From sequence record OR757436.1: 64,000 nt of DNA; one strand, written 5' to 3'. Of this stretch, positions 1 to 18,091 are shown piece after piece (within the stretch, counting starts at the first letter, position 1; every line of letters begins with the position of its first letter). The translations under genes were made by a program, and so were the position numbers. This DNA is from Escherichia phage vB-EcoP-XT73. The notes under the pieces are model-generated. The model had not been told where the DNA came from, ran no database searches, and saw only the letters and a list, made by a program, of their open reading frames with translations.

Positions 1-828
1 ATGACCTTCGGTATTCGATGGGGGGAGGTGGTAGCAATCGGTGGTGGTGTAGGTAGTGGTAAAACACTAATTGCTCACGAACTGGTTGCTCATCTGTGCT
101 TAGAGCATGGTTTTAATGGGGGTGGCTTCTTCTTGGAAGAGAAGGTAGGCATGTCTGTTAAGAACATCGCTGGTAAGTCAGCATCAATTCCTTTCCACCG
201 ACCTGATGTTGAATATGACGAGGAAGATTTGCGTAATGAAGCACTTCGTTATGCAGACAAATTCTTCTTGTATGACAACTTTGGGCAGAACGAATGGGAA
301 GACATTAAACAGTGTATCCGTTTCTGGGTAGTTGAAAACCAGTGTAAGTTCATCATTCTTGATAACATTACCGCTCTGGTATCTCATTTAACACCTTCAG
401 AGATTAACACTGAAATCAGTAAGATTGCTTCCGAGCTTGCTGGTATGTGTAAAGAATTAGACTTTACCGCTTTCGTGCTATCTCACCTTAATGCTCCGGC
501 AGGTGGTGCTCCTCACGAAGAAGGTGGACAGGTACGTGAAGTACAGTTCACTGGCTCTCGTTCTCTTATGCGTTGGTGTCAGTGTATCATTGGCTTTGAG
601 CGTGATAAGCAAGCTGACGGCTTAGCTAAGAACCTCTCAGTCATTCGATTATTGAAAGAACGTAACTACGGTCAGACTGGTGTCTGTTATACTAAGTATA
701 TCAGTGAAACCGGTAGACTTGTAGAAAGGGAAGACTTTGAAGTTGATGAAGATAATCCATTCGTTTTAACTAACGGAGAGGGTGCAGCTTCTCTCGTCAA
801 CCAAGCAGATGGAGCTTCACCGTGGTAA
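1..828 (+). CDS. DnaB-like replicative helicase, C-terminal domain (T7 gp4-like); 5' end lies outside the window
   Basis: Walker A-like GGGVGSGKT and a C-terminal stretch [32 protein letters not shown]...FERDKQ that aligns by eye with the T7 gp4 helicase region (LVICHLKNP...AHEEGRPVSITDLRGSGAL...ERNQQ). Confidence 0.8.
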
Positions 829-1376
829 AGAAAAAGAAAGTGTTTGCATTTGATATCGAAAGTAATGCACTATACGATGACATAACTAAAGTATGGTGTA
901 TTTACATTTTCGATGTTGAAACTGGTGAAAGGTGGGGCTACCGGCCTCACCAAATTGAAGATGGGATTCGTAAACTTACAGAAGCAGATGTACTAGTAGG
1001 TCATAATATTATTGACTTCGACTTACCTGCTCTGAAAAAGATATATCCCTCTTTGATTAAATATAATTTTAACGTCTTTGACACTCTGTGTCTTAGTCGA
1101 TATCTTAAACCTGACCGTATTGGTGACAGTCCTGAGTATCCGAAAGGTGACCCTAGACATGGCCCAAGAGGTCATGGTTTGAAGCAATGGGGTGAGTTCT
1201 TAGAGGAACTTAAAGGAGACTACGGTGAGCAAGAGGAAGCATGGGATGCTTTCACTGAAGATATGTTTACTTATTGTGAACAGGACGTTAACTTAACAGT
1301 TAAGGTTTATAAATACTTGTGTGAACTCACAGGATTTGACCCTTACGACCCACCTTCATTATATTGGAAAATGTAA
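822..1376 (+). CDS. DNA polymerase fragment 1: 3'-5' exonuclease domain (T7 gp5-like N-terminus)
   Basis: [48 protein letters not shown] and YCEQDVNLT match the T7 gp5 exo motifs (DIEANAL, HNGHKYDVPAL, DTLVLSRL, HALEAWGYRLGEMKGEY, YNVQDV). GTG start overlaps the helicase stop. The ORF stops at the exo/pol boundary. Confidence 0.85.
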
Positions 1377-2748: not shown

Positions 2749-3282
2749 ATGAGTTTACTAGGAAGTGTTGAACTACACGATGTAATTGATAATGGCTATC
2801 TGGATGCGGAGCATAAGTATGTTAACGCTGCTAGTGTGGATATCCGTATTGGTGATACTATCCTTGTTGAAGAACAGGCTGATGGCATCGTTGATATTGA
2901 TGCGAAAGAAAATCTTCAGTGGAAGGAAGTAAAAATCCCTGAAGAGGGCTTGGTTATCACTCCGGGTCAGTTCTTCTTGGCTCACTCTATGGAGGAGTTT
3001 AACCTTCCAGATAACATCTCAAGCCTGTTTGTTCTGCGTTCGTCTATGGCTCGTTGTGGTTTGAACCACCTTCACGCCGGATGGGCAGATGCAGGATTTA
3101 ACAGCAGTAAGCTGACATTTGAGTTCCATAACGTAACCAAGCATCATAGCTTACGAGTTCGTGCTGGTATGCGTGTTGGTCAGATGGTGATGTTTGAGCA
3201 CTCTCATGCAGGGGAACATTCCTATGCAGTGAAGGGTCGTTATAATAACTCTGAAGGTGTAGTTGCATCTAAAGGTGTGTAA
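2749..3282 (+). CDS. dcd: dCTP deaminase / dUTPase-superfamily protein
   Basis: 177 aa with SVDIRIGD, VITPGQFFLAHSMEEF and RSSMARCGL, typical of dCTP deaminases. Confidence 0.75.
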   Translation: MSLLGSVELHDVIDNGYLDAEHKYVNAASVDIRIGDTILVEEQADGIVDIDAKENLQWKEVKIPEEGLVITPGQFFLAHSMEEFNLPDNISSLFVLRSSMARCGLNHLHAGWADAGFNSSKLTFEFHNVTKHHSLRVRAGMRVGQMVMFEHSHAGEHSYAVKGRYNNSEGVVASKGV

Positions 3283-3489
3283 ATGACTGAAGAAGAGTTC
3301 CAAGAACTGAAAGGTTTGACTACCGAGGTTCAATTAAAAGCTATTACTTTTGGTCGAGCATGTCATCAATTTGATATATGCGTCGAAAGCAGTAAAGAAG
3401 CTTGTAAGAGCTATATGGATAAGAAGCACCTTGAATGGGGTAAAGCCTCTAACGATCTTTATAACTATATGAAGGGTTTAGTAAAATGA
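3283..3489 (+). CDS. hypothetical protein
   Basis: 68-aa ORF tightly packed between neighbours. Confidence 0.4.
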   Translation: MTEEEFQELKGLTTEVQLKAITFGRACHQFDICVESSKEACKSYMDKKHLEWGKASNDLYNYMKGLVK

Positions 3490-3683
3490 AAAAGTGGATT
3501 GTTCGTGTACATGATGATACGACTGGAGACTTGGTAGCTGTAGATTTTATTAACACTCGAGAACACGCCCGTAGGGTCAAAAACCAATACAAGTCTACTT
3601 TTAGACTCAATAAGGTTACAATAGGAAAAGCTATTGTGAATAACGAAGGTGCTCTTTTTGCCAACAGCAAGGTTTATTATTAA
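3486..3683 (+). CDS. small protein, paralogue family A
   Basis: Shares W-I/V-R-V ... F-T-R-x-x-A-R-x-x-K ... K-V-x-Y-Y pattern with the ORFs at 3683, 3892, 6442 and 13529. Confidence 0.5.
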   Translation: MKKWIVRVHDDTTGDLVAVDFINTREHARRVKNQYKSTFRLNKVTIGKAIVNNEGALFANSKVYY

Positions 3684-3892
3684 TGAGACCAATCACTATG
3701 AGACAGTTTTGGTTAGCAAAGATTAAGTGGGCATCAGGTGGTATGACTATGACTGCACTTCCTACTCGTCAACAGGCTCGAGATTTTAAAAAGACTATGC
3801 TTACTGGTGACGTGGTCAATAGTATCAGTATCCATAAGGCCAAGGAGTATTCTTCTGGTCGTGTTTATATCAGCGGAAAGGTACATTACTAA
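3683..3892 (+). CDS. small protein, paralogue family A
   Basis: Tandem paralogue; start overlaps the upstream stop. Confidence 0.5.
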   Translation: MRPITMRQFWLAKIKWASGGMTMTALPTRQQARDFKKTMLTGDVVNSISIHKAKEYSSGRVYISGKVHY

Positions 3893-4101
3893 TGAAAAAG
3901 ATGTGGGCGATTCGTGTTGTTTGGGATCTTGATCAACACACGAGAAAAGATAGCATCAAATTGTTTGACACTCGCAAAGAGGCTCGTATTGCTAAGAAAC
4001 AGTTGAAGACTCTGGGCACAATAGTAAAAAGCGCTGATATACATCGCTGGTACGAAGACCCTAACTCGGGTTCTTTTATGTCTAAAGTAATTTATTACTG
4101 A
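3892..4101 (+). CDS. small protein, paralogue family A
   Basis: MKKMWAIRVVWD...FDTRKEARIAKKQLK...KVIYY; third tandem copy. Confidence 0.5.
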   Translation: MKKMWAIRVVWDLDQHTRKDSIKLFDTRKEARIAKKQLKTLGTIVKSADIHRWYEDPNSGSFMSKVIYY

Positions 4102-4173: not shown

Positions 4174-4500
4174 ATGTTAGATTTGAGTAAAGTGGCCCCG
4201 CCCACTGAAGAGATTACAAAATCCAAGGTGATGCAACAGTTTTATCATCGTGATATGCTTGGTCGCTTTATCAAGAATCGTGATGTTGTTGCTTGGTCTA
4301 TTGGTAATCAGGGATATCTGTTGAAGGTTCTTCAGGTTACAGGTTCAACTGCTAAGCGAGTTAAGGTGTATGACCCTGAAATGGGGCGTTCTAAGTCAGT
4401 AGACCCGCAGAACTGCATCGTAATTACCCAGCAGGTGATAGCAAATCTAGAAAGAAATGTAGCAAACTCTACTGAGTTAGAAGGAGAAGACCCTAAGTGA
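4174..4500 (+). CDS. hypothetical protein
   Basis: 108-aa ORF with AGGAGAGAG RBS upstream. Confidence 0.5.
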   Translation: MLDLSKVAPPTEEITKSKVMQQFYHRDMLGRFIKNRDVVAWSIGNQGYLLKVLQVTGSTAKRVKVYDPEMGRSKSVDPQNCIVITQQVIANLERNVANSTELEGEDPK

Positions 4501-4990
4501 TTCCAAAGGAATTGGAAGGGAAGATTGATGTAACAGAGGATGGTAGAGTATTTACTATAAAAAGTGGAAGGTTTTAACCCTCCACACTAATGGTGCCTAT
4601 TACAGAGTTACTATTTACTTTCCTGAAGGATTAAAGAATTTCTATGTCCACAGGCTGGTTGCTAGTAAGTACATACCGAACCCTGATAATCTTCCATGTG
4701 TCAACCATAAGGATGGCAATAAACTTAACAATCATAAAGATAATCTTGAATGGTGTACCCACCGAGAAAACTCTCAACATGCATCATCATTAGGTCTGAT
4801 GGTACAGAGGTTTGGAGAAGACAATCCGCAGTCTAAACTTACTCTAGAAGATGTAGAGTACTGTAGGAGAGTTTATATCCCTCGAGATAAAGAGTTTGGA
4901 GGCTCTGCCCTTGCAAGACGTTTTGGTGTCTCTCAGCAAGTGATATCAAAAGTTCTACTTAATCAAACTTGGAGGGAATATAATGCATAA
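4497..4990 (+). pseudogene. HNH homing endonuclease, interrupted by a frameshift at an A5 run (about 4559-4563)
   Basis: Frame 3 from GTG 4497 gives MIPKELEGKIDVTEDGRVFTIKSGRF then stops; the -1 frame continues YYRVTIYFPEGLKNFYVHRLVASKYIPNPDNLPCVNHKDGNKLNNHKDNLEWCTHRENSQHA to 4990. No in-frame start precedes the HNH core. Confidence 0.5.
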
Positions 4991-5546
4991 GAATGTTTTT
5001 GATTTACCTGAGATTGGTCGTGCCGAATATAATATGTTAGACCGATCAGAGCTTTCAATCTCTCGCCTTGAAACAATGCAGGGTATGATTAGTGGAAACA
5101 GCCTAGAACACATCCTGAGCTGCTTACAAGCTAACATAGAACTCTTGCATATCAAAGCTAAAAACTACCATTGGAACGTCTCTGGTGCAGGATTTCAGGG
5201 TGTTCATGGTATGTTTGATGAGCTGGAAGATTACGCACGACAAGTAGGAGATCGTATTGCTGAACGTATGCGTTACCACTGTGTTAAAGTGGACGCCACA
5301 GCAGCCAATTATCTCTCCCATGCTTGGTTCTCAGAGGGTAATGCTGACCTAGATATGGACGGTATGCTCTCTGATATGTGCATGACCTTGATGTGTATTA
5401 TTGAGAAGATGGATGAGTTTGATGGTGATTTAGCCACTTATCCAGTTGATCAGAGTATGCTTCAAGAAATTAATGAAGGTCTTGGCAAGTATTGCTACTT
5501 CGTCAAGAGCAACATGTCCCACTCAAGTGGCGATGTGTCTTACTAA
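4983..5546 (+). CDS. dps: Dps-like ferritin-family protein
   Basis: LHIKAKNYHWNVSGAGFQGVHGMFDELEDYARQVGDRIAERM aligns with the E. coli Dps ferroxidase region ([25 protein letters not shown]...DTMAERA), including the His/Asp/Glu positions. Confidence 0.7.
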   Translation: MHKNVFDLPEIGRAEYNMLDRSELSISRLETMQGMISGNSLEHILSCLQANIELLHIKAKNYHWNVSGAGFQGVHGMFDELEDYARQVGDRIAERMRYHCVKVDATAANYLSHAWFSEGNADLDMDGMLSDMCMTLMCIIEKMDEFDGDLATYPVDQSMLQEINEGLGKYCYFVKSNMSHSSGDVSY

Positions 5547-5608
5547 AAACCTCCGCCCTGTCTCCTAACCCGAGGTGGGGCGAACTTATTTATAAGGATA
5601 TAGATATA

Positions 5609-5796: not shown

Positions 5797-5982
5797 ATGA
5801 TTTCACTGATTGTGTGGGCCGTGTGGTCGTTAATAGTTGGTACTGTTATATATAAAGCTCGAAATTTAGCAATTAAAGAAAACCCAGCAGAAGAGGATGT
5901 TAAAGCTATCAAGCTAGGCAGTGTTGTTCTGGTACATTTTGCTATAACACTACCTCTTGTTATTATTCTTTGTATGCTATAA
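5797..5982 (+). CDS. small two-segment membrane protein, paralogue of 5609
   Basis: MISLIVWAVWSLIVGTVIYKA...LVHFAITLPLVIILCML; same hydrophobic pattern as the upstream ORF. Confidence 0.4.
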   Translation: MISLIVWAVWSLIVGTVIYKARNLAIKENPAEEDVKAIKLGSVVLVHFAITLPLVIILCML

Positions 5983-6172
5983 GGAAACCAAAGAGTGAAA
6001 CTAAACCTACCTGAAGAATTACAAGCACATGCCATTATCGTTAGTGGCTGTGTGATGGGTCTTGGTCAAACAAAGAAGATTGCTCATGACTTAGCAAAAG
6101 GTCAGTATAAATCTTTTATTGTTGTTCCTGCTACCCAACGTCATATCAACCTGTTTATTAACAAGGAATAGA

Positions 6173-6445
6173 ATGTCTAAAGTGATTAAGTTTTATAGCG
6201 ATCAGTGTGCTCCATGTAAAGCAATGGCTCCTACCTTTGAGAAGGTTGTTAAGGAGTTCGATGTAGAAGTAGAAGAGATTAACATCCTTGAAGGTGATGG
6301 TCGTGAACAAGCTGTTAAGTATGGTGTAAGAAGCATCCCTGCTTTCGTTGTACCTGACCGTAATAGTGGTGCACACTATAGTCTCTCTGGTATGCAGACC
6401 GAAGCAAACCTGAAAGCATTCTTAACTACTGCCCTAGGTGTTTGA
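6173..6445 (+). CDS. thioredoxin
   Basis: FYSDQCAPCKAMAPTFEKV...KYGVRSIPAFVV aligns with the thioredoxin CxxC active site and the KYGIRGIPT strand. Start chosen at the internal ATG preceded by AAGGAA. Confidence 0.7.
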   Translation: MSKVIKFYSDQCAPCKAMAPTFEKVVKEFDVEVEEINILEGDGREQAVKYGVRSIPAFVVPDRNSGAHYSLSGMQTEANLKAFLTTALGV

Positions 6446-6651
6446 TTATGAAAAAATATTGGACGGTGGTATATTACCTCTACCAAGACCCGGCTATACC
6501 TGTTACAGAGCACTTTGCTACTCGTAAAGATGCTCGCCGTTTTAAGAAGGCTCTTAAGATGGCCCCAAAGATTTATAGTAAAGTAAGCTTACATAAATCA
6601 ACATTGTCAGAGATGGGAACCTTAGTGGTTTATTATGTAAAAGAATATTAA
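6442..6651 (+). CDS. small protein, paralogue family A
   Basis: MIMKKYWTVVYY...FATRKDARRFKKALK...LVVYY. Confidence 0.45.
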   Translation: MIMKKYWTVVYYLYQDPAIPVTEHFATRKDARRFKKALKMAPKIYSKVSLHKSTLSEMGTLVVYYVKEY

Positions 6652-6666
6652 TAAGGAAATTCACGG

Positions 6667-7323
6667 ATGAATGAACAATTACAAGCAACATTAATCGAAG
6701 CTATGGGAAGTGATCGTAGCGTAGTAAACGCAGCTCGAGTTTCCTTTGGCGTAACCCGTGAAGGTGATTTAAATGAACGTGATGAACGTCTCATCAACTT
6801 CCTCGCAAGAGAGAAGCATGTTACTCCATTCCGACACCCACAAGTCAGTTTCCGATGCAAAGCACCTATCGCAATTGCGAGACAGTTGGGCAAGCATCAG
6901 GTTGGATTCTCGTGGAACGAAATGTCCCGGCGGTATAAAGATGGAGCAGTTGAAGTCTTCATCCCTAAAGAGATTTTTGCGAGACCTTCGGACCTCCATG
7001 CAGGTTCAGGGGTTCAACTCATCGATGGAGAACGAGCTGAAGCATTAATGTTGATTAACGATGCATACGAAGCTTCTCTAGCAGCATATGACAAGTTGAT
7101 TGAATTCGTTGCACCAGAACAAGCCCGATTTGTTCTTCCTCAGGGAATGATCACTGAGTGGGTGTGGACTGGTTCTTTGTATGGCTGGTTTGAGTTGTGT
7201 CGTCAGCGACTATCCTCCCATGCTCAGTATGAAGTTCGAGTGTTTGCTCAATCTCTGGATGAAGAGATGGCTAAACTCTACCCAATCTCGTGGGCAGCTC
7301 TGAAGAAAACTTTGGAGAGTTAA
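6667..7323 (+). CDS. thyX: flavin-dependent thymidylate synthase (ThyX)-like
   Basis: 218 aa with HVTPFRHPQVSF and SWNEMSRRY segments resembling ThyX RHR and S-x-R-Y motifs; sits in the nucleotide-metabolism cluster. Confidence 0.55.
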   Translation: MNEQLQATLIEAMGSDRSVVNAARVSFGVTREGDLNERDERLINFLAREKHVTPFRHPQVSFRCKAPIAIARQLGKHQVGFSWNEMSRRYKDGAVEVFIPKEIFARPSDLHAGSGVQLIDGERAEALMLINDAYEASLAAYDKLIEFVAPEQARFVLPQGMITEWVWTGSLYGWFELCRQRLSSHAQYEVRVFAQSLDEEMAKLYPISWAALKKTLES

Positions 7324-7508: not shown

Positions 7509-7708
7509 AAACATTATGGACTCTTGACTGTCAAGATGATGACGGAGAGCGTTGGACTTGGAAATATTTCCTAGGGAAACCAACACCCGAGAACCCTGCT
7601 TTGGATTGTGCTTCATATGAAGATGCTAAGAAGCTGGTAAATGGAGAAAAGGTTTGGTCTCCGGATAATGAAGTTCAGTACTTTTTAACAGAACGGAAAT
7701 TTTCATAA
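7505..7708 (+). CDS. hypothetical protein
   Basis: 67-aa ORF, overlapping start/stop with neighbours. Confidence 0.4.
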   Translation: MKTLWTLDCQDDDGERWTWKYFLGKPTPENPALDCASYEDAKKLVNGEKVWSPDNEVQYFLTERKFS

Positions 7709-8031
7709 TGATTGACGGTAATACATTTAGGACTTCAAATGGAAGTGAAATAAGTCCCGCTGAAGTGATTAATCGGCACAGAAGGCAATTGATCATCCAT
7801 TCCTATTTGTATTACTGGTTGGATGACCCTATCTGGTCTGATGATAAATGGCAACAAGTTGCTAACGATTTGGTTGAGTTGCAAGCCTTGTATCCAGAGC
7901 CTACCGGAGTCTTTGACAATGAGTTCAAAGATTGGGATGGTTCTACAGGGATGCATCTCCCACATAACGAAGCTGTTGCTTGTATGGCGACAGCTGTTTA
8001 CAGACTTCATAAAGAGGTTAACTTCGCATGA
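7708..8031 (+). CDS. hypothetical protein
   Basis: 107-aa ORF. Confidence 0.45.
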   Translation: MIDGNTFRTSNGSEISPAEVINRHRRQLIIHSYLYYWLDDPIWSDDKWQQVANDLVELQALYPEPTGVFDNEFKDWDGSTGMHLPHNEAVACMATAVYRLHKEVNFA

Positions 8032-8228: not shown

Positions 8229-8410
8229 AGTGCTCTAGATGTGAAGGGACAAACCTTCATTTAAGTAACAAGGTTATCAGAGAGCTTGCCAAAGGCTCTC
8301 CAACCAAAGGGAAGAACAAACGATTTACTAACGTCAGGGTTTATACAGCAATCTGTAAAGATTGTTTAACTACTGAATGTCATTACGAAGAAATTGGAGA
8401 GCGTAAATGA
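8198..8410 (+). CDS. small Cys-rich protein
   Basis: KCSRCEG ... CKDCLTTECH; the true start may be the internal Met (MDIVVK). Confidence 0.35.
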   Translation: MVSYRMDIVVKCSRCEGTNLHLSNKVIRELAKGSPTKGKNKRFTNVRVYTAICKDCLTTECHYEEIGERK

Positions 8411-9144
8411 GTCGTCGTCAATCACGGAAAGAATCACGGAAAGACCTTCGTCGGGAAGCACTTGTCACTCGTAAGGGTAAGCGCGAGTTTGAAGAGGTGG
8501 TTTTAGCAAAGCCTGTAGTCCCTCAGAACCAGTTCCAGTCTGAACTGCTCAATGCTATCAAGACTAAACAAGTTGTGTTCACAGACGCTCCTGCGGGCTG
8601 CGGGAAGACCTTTGTAATCACTTCCACAGTTATTGATGCACTGAAGAGTGGTAAGATTCAGAAGATCATTCTGAGTCGCCCTTCTGTTGGCATGGGTAAC
8701 TCACTTGGGTTGCTTCCGGGAGGAATGCGTGAGAAATTTGAACCATATCTGATGCCAATCATTGATGTTATTACTCAGAGATATGGTAAGGGGTTCTATG
8801 AATGCCAGCTCGGTAATAGTAACATTGAGTTTGTACCTCTGGAGTATCTCCGTGGTCGTTCTTTCAATGATGCTATCGTTATCGTTGATGAGTTCCAGAA
8901 CACCACTAAAGATGAAGCCTTCTCAATCATGACTCGATTGGGAGAAACCTCTCAGCTGTTCTGCATGGGTGATACAAACCAGCATGATATGCGTGGTCGT
9001 GAGAGTGGTCTTACTTGGGCTACTAACTTTATTGATGAACATGATCTGTATGAGTTCGCTGAGATTGTAGACGGCGAATCAGATGACATTGTTCGTTCTG
9101 GTTTCTGTAAAGCTATTGTTAAAGCAATGGAAAAGAAAGCTTAA
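8407..9144 (+). CDS. phoH: PhoH-like ATPase
   Basis: Walker A APAGCGKT and Walker B-like IVIVDEFQN in the PhoH arrangement. Confidence 0.85.
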   Translation: MSRRQSRKESRKDLRREALVTRKGKREFEEVVLAKPVVPQNQFQSELLNAIKTKQVVFTDAPAGCGKTFVITSTVIDALKSGKIQKIILSRPSVGMGNSLGLLPGGMREKFEPYLMPIIDVITQRYGKGFYECQLGNSNIEFVPLEYLRGRSFNDAIVIVDEFQNTTKDEAFSIMTRLGETSQLFCMGDTNQHDMRGRESGLTWATNFIDEHDLYEFAEIVDGESDDIVRSGFCKAIVKAMEKKA

Positions 9145-9524: not shown

Positions 9525-9532
9525 TATGAGGC

Positions 9533-9565
9533 TACCCAAATGGGTGGCCTTTTCTTTTATATAAA
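9533..9565 (+). terminator. rho-independent terminator
   Basis: ggctacccaaatgggtggcc hairpin followed by ttttcttttat. Confidence 0.6.
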
Positions 9566-9592: not shown

Positions 9593-9841
9593 ATGTCTAT
9601 TGTAAAAACTGTAACTATTATTGATGTAATGACTGTCCGTCTGGTTAAGTGGAAATTCACCAACAATCATGGCATTGCTAATCTCATTGCAAACCAGATT
9701 GGTCATAACCCAAAAACAGCTCGTACTAACGTAATCCTCCGTGGTGCTGATGGGAAGTTCATTTCTTATAAGAATAAAGATGTAGAGAAAGAATTCCGTG
9801 TTGCAGTAGAAAACCTCATCCCATTCCCTAAAGGAGTTTAA
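9593..9841 (+). CDS. small protein, paralogue pair B
   Basis: ...HNPKTARTNVILRGADGKFISYKNK...LIPFPKGV; paralogous to the next ORF. Confidence 0.5.
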   Translation: MSIVKTVTIIDVMTVRLVKWKFTNNHGIANLIANQIGHNPKTARTNVILRGADGKFISYKNKDVEKEFRVAVENLIPFPKGV

Positions 9842-9842
9842 T

Positions 9843-10118
9843 ATGAATAAATTAGCTATGGTTCAGATTCGAGACATATACCCTAACCATCCGGAGAAAA
9901 CTTGGTCTTATCTGTTGACTGAAAGCAAGACTATTGACACATATCTTGCAGGGGTTGACACTATCCCAACCAGTATCACATTGCTCCCTCACAAAACAGC
10001 CAGAACCCATGTGATGTTACGTGACAGCAAAGGTAAGTTTATCTCTTATCGAGATGCTCGAATCAATAGCGAAATTAAATCTGCTATGGAATCTTTAACG
10101 CCATTCCCAAAAGGTTGA
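9843..10118 (+). CDS. small protein, paralogue pair B
   Basis: ...HKTARTHVMLRDSKGKFISYRDA...LTPFPKG. Confidence 0.5.
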   Translation: MNKLAMVQIRDIYPNHPEKTWSYLLTESKTIDTYLAGVDTIPTSITLLPHKTARTHVMLRDSKGKFISYRDARINSEIKSAMESLTPFPKG

Positions 10119-10714: not shown

Positions 10715-12559
10715 GTGAGCAACCCGGACGCTCTCCCATTTTTGACAGAGATGACTGTCGCTGATATAATCTCTAAGCAAGCGAAGCACGGAGTGAGTTT
10801 CAACCGAAGAAATGCTCGGTGGTATGTTCACCTCCTTAAAGAGATTATTGTTAATATTGACAAAGAACTGATTCCTCTCTTACCTAAGATGCGATTAGAT
10901 GGCTCTACTTACATGAAACCATTTAAGAAGTCTGGAGCTTTACAGAAATGGCCTCAAGCCTATTGTGATAGAGTTGGACTTAAGAGAGAAGACATTGGTG
11001 GAGCATTCACCTGTGTTGAATACGTAGACTTTGACCCATCGAAAGATGCACGAGTTAAAGAAGCCCTTATGGATGAGGGTTTTCTTCCTCCAGAGTTTAA
11101 CGTATCAAAGAAACCTTGGAATACTTTTGAAATCAAGAAAGATATGCGAAAGTATGGAACATACCAAGCATGGTATTCAGCTTGGATGCGAGGTAATGCT
11201 AAACAGAAGCAGACAGCCGAGATGGTTGACGCTGATATTAGGAAGTTCTTAGAAAAGCATTTTAGGTTTAAGACTAAGAACTATATGAAGGCTTATGTAT
11301 TTGGTTTAGGTTTAAATCCTAACCGACGTAGACCTATCACTTTTGACGAGATTAAGATAGCACTAGCTACCTCAAACAAGTGGCCTACAGCTCCTACAAA
11401 CCTCGAGGAGACTCTTGAAGAAGGGTTAGGGGGTGAGTTAGGAAGTGTCGGAAGTTTGCTTAAGAGACGCGTTGTAGCGGCTCACAGGCTAGGTCTTATC
11501 AGTGGACTAATAGCAAAGGAACGCGAAGATGGTAAACTTTCGGCAGAAGCTAACAGCTGCGCTACGCCGACTTTTCGATTCAAACATCGTATCGTGGTTA
11601 ATATTCCCTCCCGTGGTTTGTTTGGTCATGAGTGTCGCAGTTTGTTTGAGTCTGACTATAACTCAGATGATGATCACTCTCGTCCTTTCGTTATTACTAA
11701 CGTTGTTCCTGATGGTTGTTATATACGAAAAGGTACTAACGTAATTTACGAGAAAGGTAAGCCGGGGAAGAAAGATAAGCCTGTAGGTGCTTACAAATAT
11801 TACATACCCGCTGGTAAAGAAGTATTCTTAGGGTATGATGGTTCTGGGTTAGAGTTGCGTATGCTGGTACATTATCTAGTAAAAGAGTGCCTTGATATGA
11901 TGGAGGAGGCTAAACTAGAAAATGACAAAGTTAAATATCTAAGAGCTGAGAAAGGCTTAGAAGCTGCCTATACATACAGAGATGTACTGCTGTCTGGTGA
12001 TATTCATTCCCACAATCAGAAACTCGCTGGGCTTCCAACTCGTGACAATGCAAAAACCTTCATCTATGGATTCCTGTATGGAGCAGGAGCAGCTAAAATT
12101 GGGGAAATAGTTGGAGGGGGTGCTCAAGAAGGTGAAATTCTTAGAGAGCGATTCTTAGCGGAATGTCCTTGTATTCCTATCGTACTGGAGAGAGTTCAGG
12201 CCCGAGCGGAATCAGGCACTTTGGAAGGTGTGGATGGTCGTAAGTTAACTATGAGACGAGATGCTACTGGTAAGGTTATGGTGCATAAAGCACTGAATAC
12301 TCTACTTCAGAGTGCAGGTGCCATTGTCATGAAGTACTCTATTCTGTTTACAAACAAATGGGTAGAGCAGCAGAATATTAGAGGAAACAAAGTGATCGAT
12401 TATCATGATGAAGCACAGTGGTCTGTCAACCGTAACGACGTTGATAAAATGAAGAAGATAGCTGAGACTTGTGTTAAGAAGGCAGGTGAATATCTAAACA
12501 TGCACTGTGAACTAGCTTCTGATTGTAAAATCGGATTGAATTGGATGCAAACTCACTAA
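10715..12559 (+). CDS. DNA polymerase fragment 2: family A polymerase domain (T7 gp5-like)
   Basis: DGSGLELRMLVHY, GDIHSHNQKLAGLPTRDNAKTFIYGFLYGAG, ALNTLLQSAGA and YHDEAQ match T7 gp5 (DASGLELRCLAHF, GDIHTKNQ...PTRDNAKTFIYGFLYGAG, ALNTLLQSAGA, VHDEIQ). GTG start after AAAGGAG. The N-terminus aligns with T7 residues just after the exo domain. Confidence 0.9.
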   Translation: MSNPDALPFLTEMTVADIISKQAKHGVSFNRRNARWYVHLLKEIIVNIDKELIPLLPKMRLDGSTYMKPFKKSGALQKWPQAYCDRVGLKREDIGGAFTCVEYVDFDPSKDARVKEALMDEGFLPPEFNVSKKPWNTFEIKKDMRKYGTYQAWYSAWMRGNAKQKQTAEMVDADIRKFLEKHFRFKTKNYMKAYVFGLGLNPNRRRPITFDEIKIALATSNKWPTAPTNLEETLEEGLGGELGSVGSLLKRRVVAAHRLGLISGLIAKEREDGKLSAEANSCATPTFRFKHRIVVNIPSRGLFGHECRSLFESDYNSDDDHSRPFVITNVVPDGCYIRKGTNVIYEKGKPGKKDKPVGAYKYYIPAGKEVFLGYDGSGLELRMLVHYLVKECLDMMEEAKLENDKVKYLRAEKGLEAAYTYRDVLLSGDIHSHNQKLAGLPTRDNAKTFIYGFLYGAGAAKIGEIVGGGAQEGEILRERFLAECPCIPIVLERVQARAESGTLEGVDGRKLTMRRDATGKVMVHKALNTLLQSAGAIVMKYSILFTNKWVEQQNIRGNKVIDYHDEAQWSVNRNDVDKMKKIAETCVKKAGEYLNMHCELASDCKIGLNWMQTH

Positions 12560-16714: not shown

Positions 16715-16718
<4 letters not shown>
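16458..16718 (+). CDS. o-spanin (Rz1-like) candidate, overlapping the 16223 gene
   Basis: MRKLNQFFIMSALVMTTSACSTSDSS looks like a signal peptide with a Cys near the cleavage region. It starts inside the upstream gene in a different frame and extends beyond it. The lipobox is atypical. Confidence 0.35.

Positions 16719-18091
<1,373 letters not shown>

Follow-up and report, generated by a model that had tools for sequence, protein, structure and literature searches.

Why a phage with a T7-type DNA polymerase should encode a thioredoxin of its own is the question raised by a small gene of Escherichia phage vB-EcoP-XT73 (OR757436.1), of which a stretch of 64,000 nucleotides (the window) was analysed. 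T7 itself recruits the thioredoxin of its host, E. coli TrxA, as a processivity factor, and a sequence-only reading of the window had proposed that the phage protein may take the same part for its own polymerase or else serve as a reductant in nucleotide metabolism. Both the gene and the polymerase-processivity idea are already published. The description of phage Privateer, published in 2021, suggested that a thioredoxin encoded by the phage may pair with its T7-like polymerase and improve the processivity of the enzyme, and filed the protein under stress response (PMC7881722). Work on phage SU10 found the thioredoxin and a Dps-like protein conserved in all five C3-morphotype phages and detected both by mass spectrometry, the SU10 thioredoxin with a coverage of 52.8% (PMC4281155). 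According to a 2025-26 preprint, the function of a phage-encoded thioredoxin had never been investigated before the work reported there.

The window comes from a phiEco32-like Kuravirus (Gordonclarkvirinae). Escherichia phage vB-EcoP-XT18 matches its first 16 kb with 97.9% identity and 99% coverage, and 99 phage records of the phiEco32 group match this part. The thioredoxin protein was found by tblastn in 126 phage records, many of them annotated as "thioredoxin" or "thiol-disulfide isomerase and thioredoxin", and the gene is present in every Kuravirus-type record matched in both the DNA and the thioredoxin searches (92 Escherichia and 3 Shigella). The protein is 100% identical to those of NJ01, 172-1, XT18, and XT32 and 98.9% identical to that of phiEco32. 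The thioredoxins of phiEco32, SU10, NJ01, and Privateer represent the same gene with no substantive difference, and the window is another isolate of this group.

The thioredoxin gene lies on the plus strand at 6173..6445 and encodes 90 amino acids, from an ATG at 6173 to a TGA at 6443-6445. An AAGGA Shine-Dalgarno sequence, read from the sequence at 6163..6167 (+), stands 5 nt before the ATG, and the preceding ORF (5995-6171) terminates in a stop codon, at 6169-6171, that leaves 1 nt before the start. The product matches the Pfam family PF00085 (Thioredoxin) far beyond chance, with E=2.5e-13 and a score of 50.3 bits, the gathering cut-off being 23.5, and it matches PHROG 22 ("thioredoxin domain"; category nucleotide metabolism) with E=1.9e-12. 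The active site, C12-A-P-C15, comprises residues 12-15 (nt 6206-6217), and KYGVRSIPAF comprises residues 49-58, with the cis-proline loop G51-V-R-S-I-P56 encoded by nt 6323-6340. Thus, the claim that the phage encodes its own short thioredoxin, with a CAPC active site and KYGVRSIPAF, holds. To judge from codon substitutions, the gene is under strong purifying selection, with a dN/dS of about 0.07 relative to phage SU7, the same as that of the polymerase, in a comparison in which synonymous sites are saturated. A sharp mosaic boundary falls at the start of the gene. The two preceding ORFs (5797-5982 and 5995-6171) have 100% protein identity to SU7 and a dS of 0.02-0.05; the thioredoxin is 79% identical to that of SU7 and saturated at synonymous sites, and likewise the exonuclease is 80%, the polymerase 81%, and the Dps-like protein 84% identical.

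The protein differs from TrxA in several respects. It lacks the N-terminal beta1-alpha1 of TrxA (about 20 residues), and the match to the Pfam profile begins at position 22 of 103. The chain begins at the strand before the active site, and in place of the canonical TrxA architecture of five strands and four helices in about 105-110 aa, the AlphaFold2 model (pLDDT 92.9) has a minimal beta-alpha-beta-alpha-beta-beta-alpha fold with 4 strands (residues 3-8, 32-37, 57-61, and 68-72) and 3 helices (13-26, 43-49, and 77-88), C12 and C15 lying at the start of the first helix. Lys (Lys6) replaces Asp26, Tyr replaces Trp28, Gln replaces Trp31, Ala replaces Gly33, and Ser replaces Gly74; consequently, where the canonical protein has W-C-G-P-C and a buried Asp26, the phage protein reads Q-C-A-P-C. 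Retained are C-x-P-C, the equivalent of Arg73, and the cis-proline, with R53-S-I-P56 corresponding to R73-G-I-P76 of TrxA. Within the family, neither of the two cysteines varies, nor does the cis-proline or the residue equivalent to Arg73. The best Foldseek matches of the model are E. coli TrxA chains (TM 0.82, rmsd 1.6-1.9 A, 28-30% identity), and the TrxA chain from the T7 polymerase complex 1T7P is among them.

A profile search against 1.84 billion representatives returned 17,817 relatives at E<=0.001. Among the top 150 of these, 60 are single-domain matches of <=115 aa, most of them 80-92 aa; in this sample, Lys occupies the Asp26 position in 47 of the 60 and Ser the Gly74 position in 40, and C-x-P-C is found in 58. 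The representatives examined are metagenomic singletons on short contigs, and all three of the genomic contexts fetched are phage replication modules. The idea that Lys for Asp26 together with Ser for Gly74 marks a relaxed redox function was rejected, because both are hallmarks of this large class of short thioredoxins. Within the sequences compared, then, the departures of the phage thioredoxin from TrxA are features of its class rather than oddities.

The middle genes, which serve replication and nucleotide metabolism and include a nucleotidyltransferase, occupy the first 16 kb of the window. At its start lies the C-terminal part of a T7 gp4-like primase/helicase (1..828, +), cut by the window start and ending ...NQADGASPW. 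T7 gp4 carries at its C-terminus an acidic tail and a terminal aromatic residue that dock on the polymerase, and the primase/helicase C-terminus found here would fit a replisome built like that of T7. A separate gene for a 3'-5' exonuclease subunit of 184 aa (822..1376, +) is followed by a dCTP deaminase gene, dcd (2749..3282, +), which in the related family Grimontviridae stands directly upstream of the thioredoxin gene, by a small conserved ORF of 108 aa without a Pfam family, here called x (4174..4500, +), which is homologous (HMM E=3e-20) to the ORF found between the thioredoxin and Dps-like genes of Grimontviridae, and by the gene for a Dps/ferritin-like protein of 187 aa (4983..5546, +). 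Two terminator-like hairpins, each from a consensus scan only, one of 11 pairs followed by a T-rich tail (5554..5582, +) and the other at 9528..9551 (+), delimit a predicted transcription unit that comprises small membrane ORFs, the thioredoxin gene, the gene for the flavin-dependent thymidylate synthase ThyX (6667..7323, +; separated from the upstream thioredoxin gene by one small ORF), a DNA ligase-like ORF, and PhoH (8407-9144). The polymerase gene, 4.27 kb downstream of the thioredoxin gene on the same strand, belongs to the next predicted unit. The phiEco32 late-promoter motif TAATGTAT is uninformative: it occurs 5 times where 3.1 occurrences are expected, and nowhere near the thioredoxin gene.

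Several neighbours have features of their own. The ORF directly downstream of the thioredoxin gene, at 6448 (PHROG 4939, "unknown function"), is one of four paralogous proteins of 65-69 aa encoded at 3486-4101 and 6448-6651 (+), which have a "...TRKEAR..KK.L..." pattern and pairwise E values of 5e-5 to 3e-6; a second tandem pair of paralogues, at 9593-9841 and 9843-10118, has 56% identity in an aligned segment of 41 aa. The ORF at 7708-8031 (+), named "DNA ligase" in GenBank records, is a stand-alone 107-aa protein consisting of domain Ia of NAD+-dependent DNA ligase alone (Pfam Nlig-Ia, 121 bits); as it has no adenylation domain, its function may lie in the modulation of host LigA or in NAD+ binding. 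At 16715-17158 (+), among the middle genes, lies the gene for a protein with a macro domain (Pfam Macro, E=5e-9), which the XT18 annotation calls a phosphatase. A perfect sigma-70 consensus (TTGACA, 17 nt, TG-TATAAT; 12/12) at 10742-10770 (+) falls inside the polymerase ORF, within its first 56 nt; the N-terminus of the product is conserved in homologues.

That a T7-like polymerase gene lies downstream of the thioredoxin gene was also correctly read from the sequence. The ORF at 10715..12559 (+) encodes the 614-aa polymerase-domain subunit of a split T7-type family A DNA polymerase. Its best solved relative is T7 gp5 (phmmer E=9e-37, hhalign probability 100%, Foldseek E=9e-26; pLDDT of the structural model 92.6). 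Residues 271-614 align to gp5 412-704 with 30% identity (E=4e-41), and the exonuclease ORF aligns to gp5 residues 1-196 with 32% identity (E=1e-17). Thus, the polymerase is split at the exo/pol boundary, and the two genes are separated by 9.3 kb that hold about 20 others. Besides an element in the thumb, the polymerase has three further inserts relative to T7, at aa 124-228, 318-366, and 386-420 or, more narrowly delimited, at about aa 135-221, 322-362, and 388-413, which vary or vanish among relatives; the last of these (ins4; 35 aa versus 7) was found only in the thioredoxin-carrying C3-type lineage. In KBNP1711, ECBP2, and one further relative (L016), the polymerase frame breaks off after aa 453 or 564 (window numbering) and is resumed in another ORF, which probably reflects homing-endonuclease insertions; the copy in the window, unlike these, is intact.

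[quoted passage not shown] In the model of the phage polymerase, a 55-aa element (codons 56-110; 10880..11044, +) sits exactly between helices H (aa 31-55) and H1 (aa 111-120) and is built of a strand (59-66), a helix (78-87), and a second strand (98-104), with a pLDDT of about 88-91. Profile alignment makes it colinear with the T7 TBD, with 53 of the 76 T7 residues aligned (polymerase 53-105) at 30% identity, so that the thioredoxin-binding insertion for which the sequence-only reading had asked in this thumb has a counterpart. The element is 23 residues shorter than the T7 domain, the deletions lying mostly in the N-terminal half, and its C-terminal half (T7 293-333) is 38% identical to T7, compared with 12-14% for the flanking thumb helices. 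T7 E319 aligns with Glu92 of the polymerase; Himawan and Richardson reportedly found in 1992 that changes at gp5 E319 suppress the thioredoxin change G74D. In every relative, down to those of about 35% identity, the length of the element stays constant at 52-58 aa. Among the alleles of Kuravirus and Suseptimavirus, no other segment of the thumb, or of the N-terminal half of the polymerase, is as well conserved, the element being 95-100% identical where its flanks are 78-83% and ins4 is 61-67% identical. The polymerase therefore has a truncated homologue of the TBD that is under strong constraint; as far as such comparisons can tell, it looks functionally important.

If this element were kept for the phage thioredoxin, the two would be expected together. 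Bruynoghevirus Pa222, however, has the element and no thioredoxin-like ORF in its whole 45.8-kb genome, even at E<=10; its element and that of the window phage have in common the motif G-x-x-Y-x-x-P-F ... G-G-P-F-T-x-V-x-Y-x-P-F-D. The metagenomic relatives L007 and L008 have the element and no redoxin within +/-10 kb, and L009 and L012 have the element and a glutaredoxin with no thioredoxin within +/-10 kb. Thus, in five relatives, the element occurs with its length and motif unchanged and with no thioredoxin gene in the sequence covered. The element is therefore no predictor of a phage thioredoxin, and its ligand may be the thioredoxin of the host or some other molecule. Nor could linkage between thioredoxin and element alleles be demonstrated across eight mosaic Kuravirus/Suseptimavirus genomes, in which the element differs at three positions only. 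One of these (M67S) follows the thioredoxin allele class; the other two are unlinked, since KBNP1711 combines a class-A thioredoxin with element substitutions that elsewhere accompany class B. The thioredoxin does co-occur with polymerase ins4 and with the Dps-like gene, an association inseparable from shared ancestry. Consequently, the proposal that the phage supplies its own factor is supported in part, by the presence of a homologous thumb element, and in part is not, since the same element is found in relatives without the thioredoxin gene.

For the other half of the original proposal, in which the protein would serve nucleotide metabolism as a reductant, the phage itself encodes no client. 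Neither the window nor the genome of XT18, the nearest complete one, was found to contain a glutaredoxin or a ribonucleotide reductase of class I, II, or III (NrdA, NrdB, NrdD, NrdG, or class II), and the thioredoxin gene of the window is not adjacent to nrd genes. Among the C3-type phages that have the thioredoxin, Kuravirus encodes no reductase, GAP52 encodes NrdD/NrdG only (class III), annotated as resembling those of the T4-type phage RB16, and Privateer encodes NrdAB plus NrdD (class I plus III). NrdD of the T4 and E. coli type uses formate as reductant rather than thioredoxin. Thus, the thioredoxin is retained across the C3-type phages whatever the reductase set, which argues against a role purely in the service of a phage reductase.

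The protein could still feed deoxynucleotide synthesis, as a redox-active disulfide reductase that the thioredoxin reductase of the host recycles, if its client were host NrdAB (class Ia) here and the phage reductase in relatives. The invariant C-x-P-C, cis-proline, and Arg73-equivalent loop, and the C-x-P-C of nearly all of the short thioredoxins sampled, fit such an activity, as does the position of the gene among those for nucleotide metabolism, with ThyX in the same predicted unit and dcd upstream, and the PHROG category agrees. In the T7-like marine podovirus L032, a short thioredoxin of the same class overlaps the start of the reductase gene; in L010, a small redoxin stands directly before nrdB-nrdA; and in L030, the order is dcd-Trx-x and then NrdD. 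The thioredoxin of cyanophage Syn5, the only phage thioredoxin studied experimentally, is redox-active and thought to serve the reductase (bioRxiv 10.1101/2025.10.05.680603), and those experiments favour such a role. Syn5 resembles the window phage in having both a phage-encoded thioredoxin and a T7-type polymerase, and both mechanisms were considered for it; however, Syn5 has its own ribonucleotide reductase, and the window phage has none. Likewise, the T4 NrdC/NrdH-type redoxins are small and phage-encoded, with a CxxC motif, a length of about 80-90 aa, and a minimal thioredoxin-fold topology, but these are glutaredoxin-like and coupled to a phage or bacterial reductase, whereas the protein in the window is of the thioredoxin class by sequence and fold, and the window has no reductase. 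In the sister clade, redoxins track reductases (the glutaredoxin of L009 adjoins nrdAB, and Pa222 has neither), a rule that Kuravirus breaks: the gene is kept under strong constraint in a phage with no reductase of any class, and GAP52 keeps it with a class III enzyme alone. Moreover, abundant TrxA and Grx1 already serve NrdAB in E. coli. We regard this redox role as rather unlikely, though it is the foremost competitor. The associations with Dps could instead reflect a module for redox or iron handling or oxidative stress, in which the thioredoxin, the Dps-like ferritin, and x would protect replicating phage DNA. The three co-occur in nearly all C3-type relatives examined (on L030, no Dps-like gene was called within +/-10 kb), x and Dps are both in the window, and in the Grimontviridae-type GAP52, Privateer, and L011, the genes form a tightly packed, overlapping dcd-Trx-x-Dps block. 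The thioredoxin-less relatives other than Pa222 also have no ferritin gene within +/-10 kb, and the published conservation of both proteins in the five C3 phages and the assignment to stress response in Privateer point the same way. In the window, however, the thioredoxin gene has moved off x-Dps, past the terminator-like hairpin, and into the ThyX/PhoH unit; the co-occurrence may reflect nothing but the shared ancestry of the clade, and no functional connection of thioredoxin with Dps is known to us. Such a module is the least probable of the explanations considered. The adjacency of x and Dps itself is conserved in GAP52, Privateer, L011, and the window.

The presence of the thumb element in relatives without a thioredoxin leads to another alternative, in which the element binds host TrxA or has a thioredoxin-independent role, such as contact with DNA or helicase, and the phage thioredoxin has an unrelated client, for example a phage protein that it keeps reduced or a host defence that it counters. 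The best-conserved half of the element corresponds to the T7 segment with E319, and both phages infect E. coli. In addition, AF3 predictions for Syn5 place host thioredoxins, and not the phage one, on the polymerase (bioRxiv 10.1101/2025.10.05.680603). On the other hand, no candidate client was found and no defence-related signal was seen, and the retention of the gene throughout the clade, inside the replication module, is left unexplained; this alternative is improbable, if less so than the Dps module. A further comparison bears on whether a shortened domain binds any thioredoxin. The split T7-like polymerases of the S-SBP1 type have a TBD shortened by half, and for cyanophage S-SBP1 itself, AlphaFold2 predicted no complex with either host thioredoxin (PMC10201439). 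These polymerases resemble that of the window phage in their separate exonuclease and polymerase genes and their shortened TBD. They differ in that the element of the window phage, at about 55 aa, would pass the "50 aa or more" criterion for a TBD used in that work (Czernecki et al. 2023) and in that the window phage has its own thioredoxin gene and three further polymerase inserts.

The explanation ranked first, which we hold tentatively and at somewhat less than an even chance, is that the phage thioredoxin is a partner of the phage's own T7-type polymerase. In this model, a minimal functional thioredoxin would be produced in the middle (replication) phase and would join the exonuclease and polymerase subunits in a three-piece T7-type replicase. 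Its active-site face (C-A-P-C and the R53-S-I-P56 loop) would dock at the thumb tip, on the 55-aa element, and the docked protein would hold the thumb over the duplex and so raise processivity. Having its own thioredoxin, the phage would be independent of host trxA. We infer both the binding of thioredoxin to polymerase and the gain in processivity that would result from it. T7 gp5 with TrxA (1T7P) is the closest precedent, with the nearest solved polymerase, a homologue of the element at the TBD position, a thioredoxin resembling the model, and the same host species; it differs in that the thioredoxin in the window is phage-encoded and 90 rather than 108 aa long, that the polymerase is split in two genes, and that binding here is a hypothesis. 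This precedent in the same host and the highly specific recognition (PMC8010470) offer a rationale for a dedicated, co-evolved partner.

Several results favour the polymerase partnership: the split T7-type polymerase with its structured, conserved, and TBD-colinear thumb element; the constraint on the thioredoxin despite the lack of any phage reductase or glutaredoxin; the likeness of the thioredoxin model to TrxA, the factor of T7, above other structures; and the fact that the protein is made, as mass spectrometry of SU10 has shown (PMC4281155). Others weaken it. The thumb element is equally conserved in relatives without the thioredoxin gene; 23 residues of the TBD are missing, and the S-SBP1 polymerase has no predicted thioredoxin complex (PMC10201439); and the Syn5 thioredoxin is redox-active and a predicted non-binder of its polymerase. 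The use that T7 makes of thioredoxin is redox-independent, so that for a subunit with a structural role alone there is no evident need of both cysteines, and yet these, the cis-proline, and the Arg73 equivalent are invariant. Furthermore, short thioredoxins of this class often lie beside reductase genes, as in L032, L010, and L030, and the thioredoxin and polymerase genes show no demonstrable co-segregation of alleles and are in separate predicted transcription units. A more far-reaching form of the polymerase partnership, which we regard as possible and put forward with greater reserve, is that this clade of prolate-headed podophages has internalised the host-factor dependency of T7: a stripped-down thioredoxin, without beta1-alpha1, with Lys for Asp26, and without Trp31, would be the third replicase subunit, seated on a half-length TBD, and the loss of trxA would thereby be closed as a route to resistance. 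A literature search found no report of dependence on host trxA for Kuravirus or LUZ24-like phages.

Beyond the published gene and processivity idea, the present analysis adds that a TBD-homologous thumb element exists, that it is the most constrained part of the thumb and is not tied to the phage thioredoxin gene, and that retention of the thioredoxin is independent of any phage reductase. This phage group is therefore an unusually clean test case, with a TBD remnant in a T7-type polymerase, no confounding reductase, and E. coli as host, for which deletions of trxA, trxB, and trxC and T7 controls are standard. If the polymerase partnership is false, a redox role independent of reductase would be indicated. 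If it is true, these phages would provide an instance of a virus turning a recruited host factor into a subunit of its own replicase.
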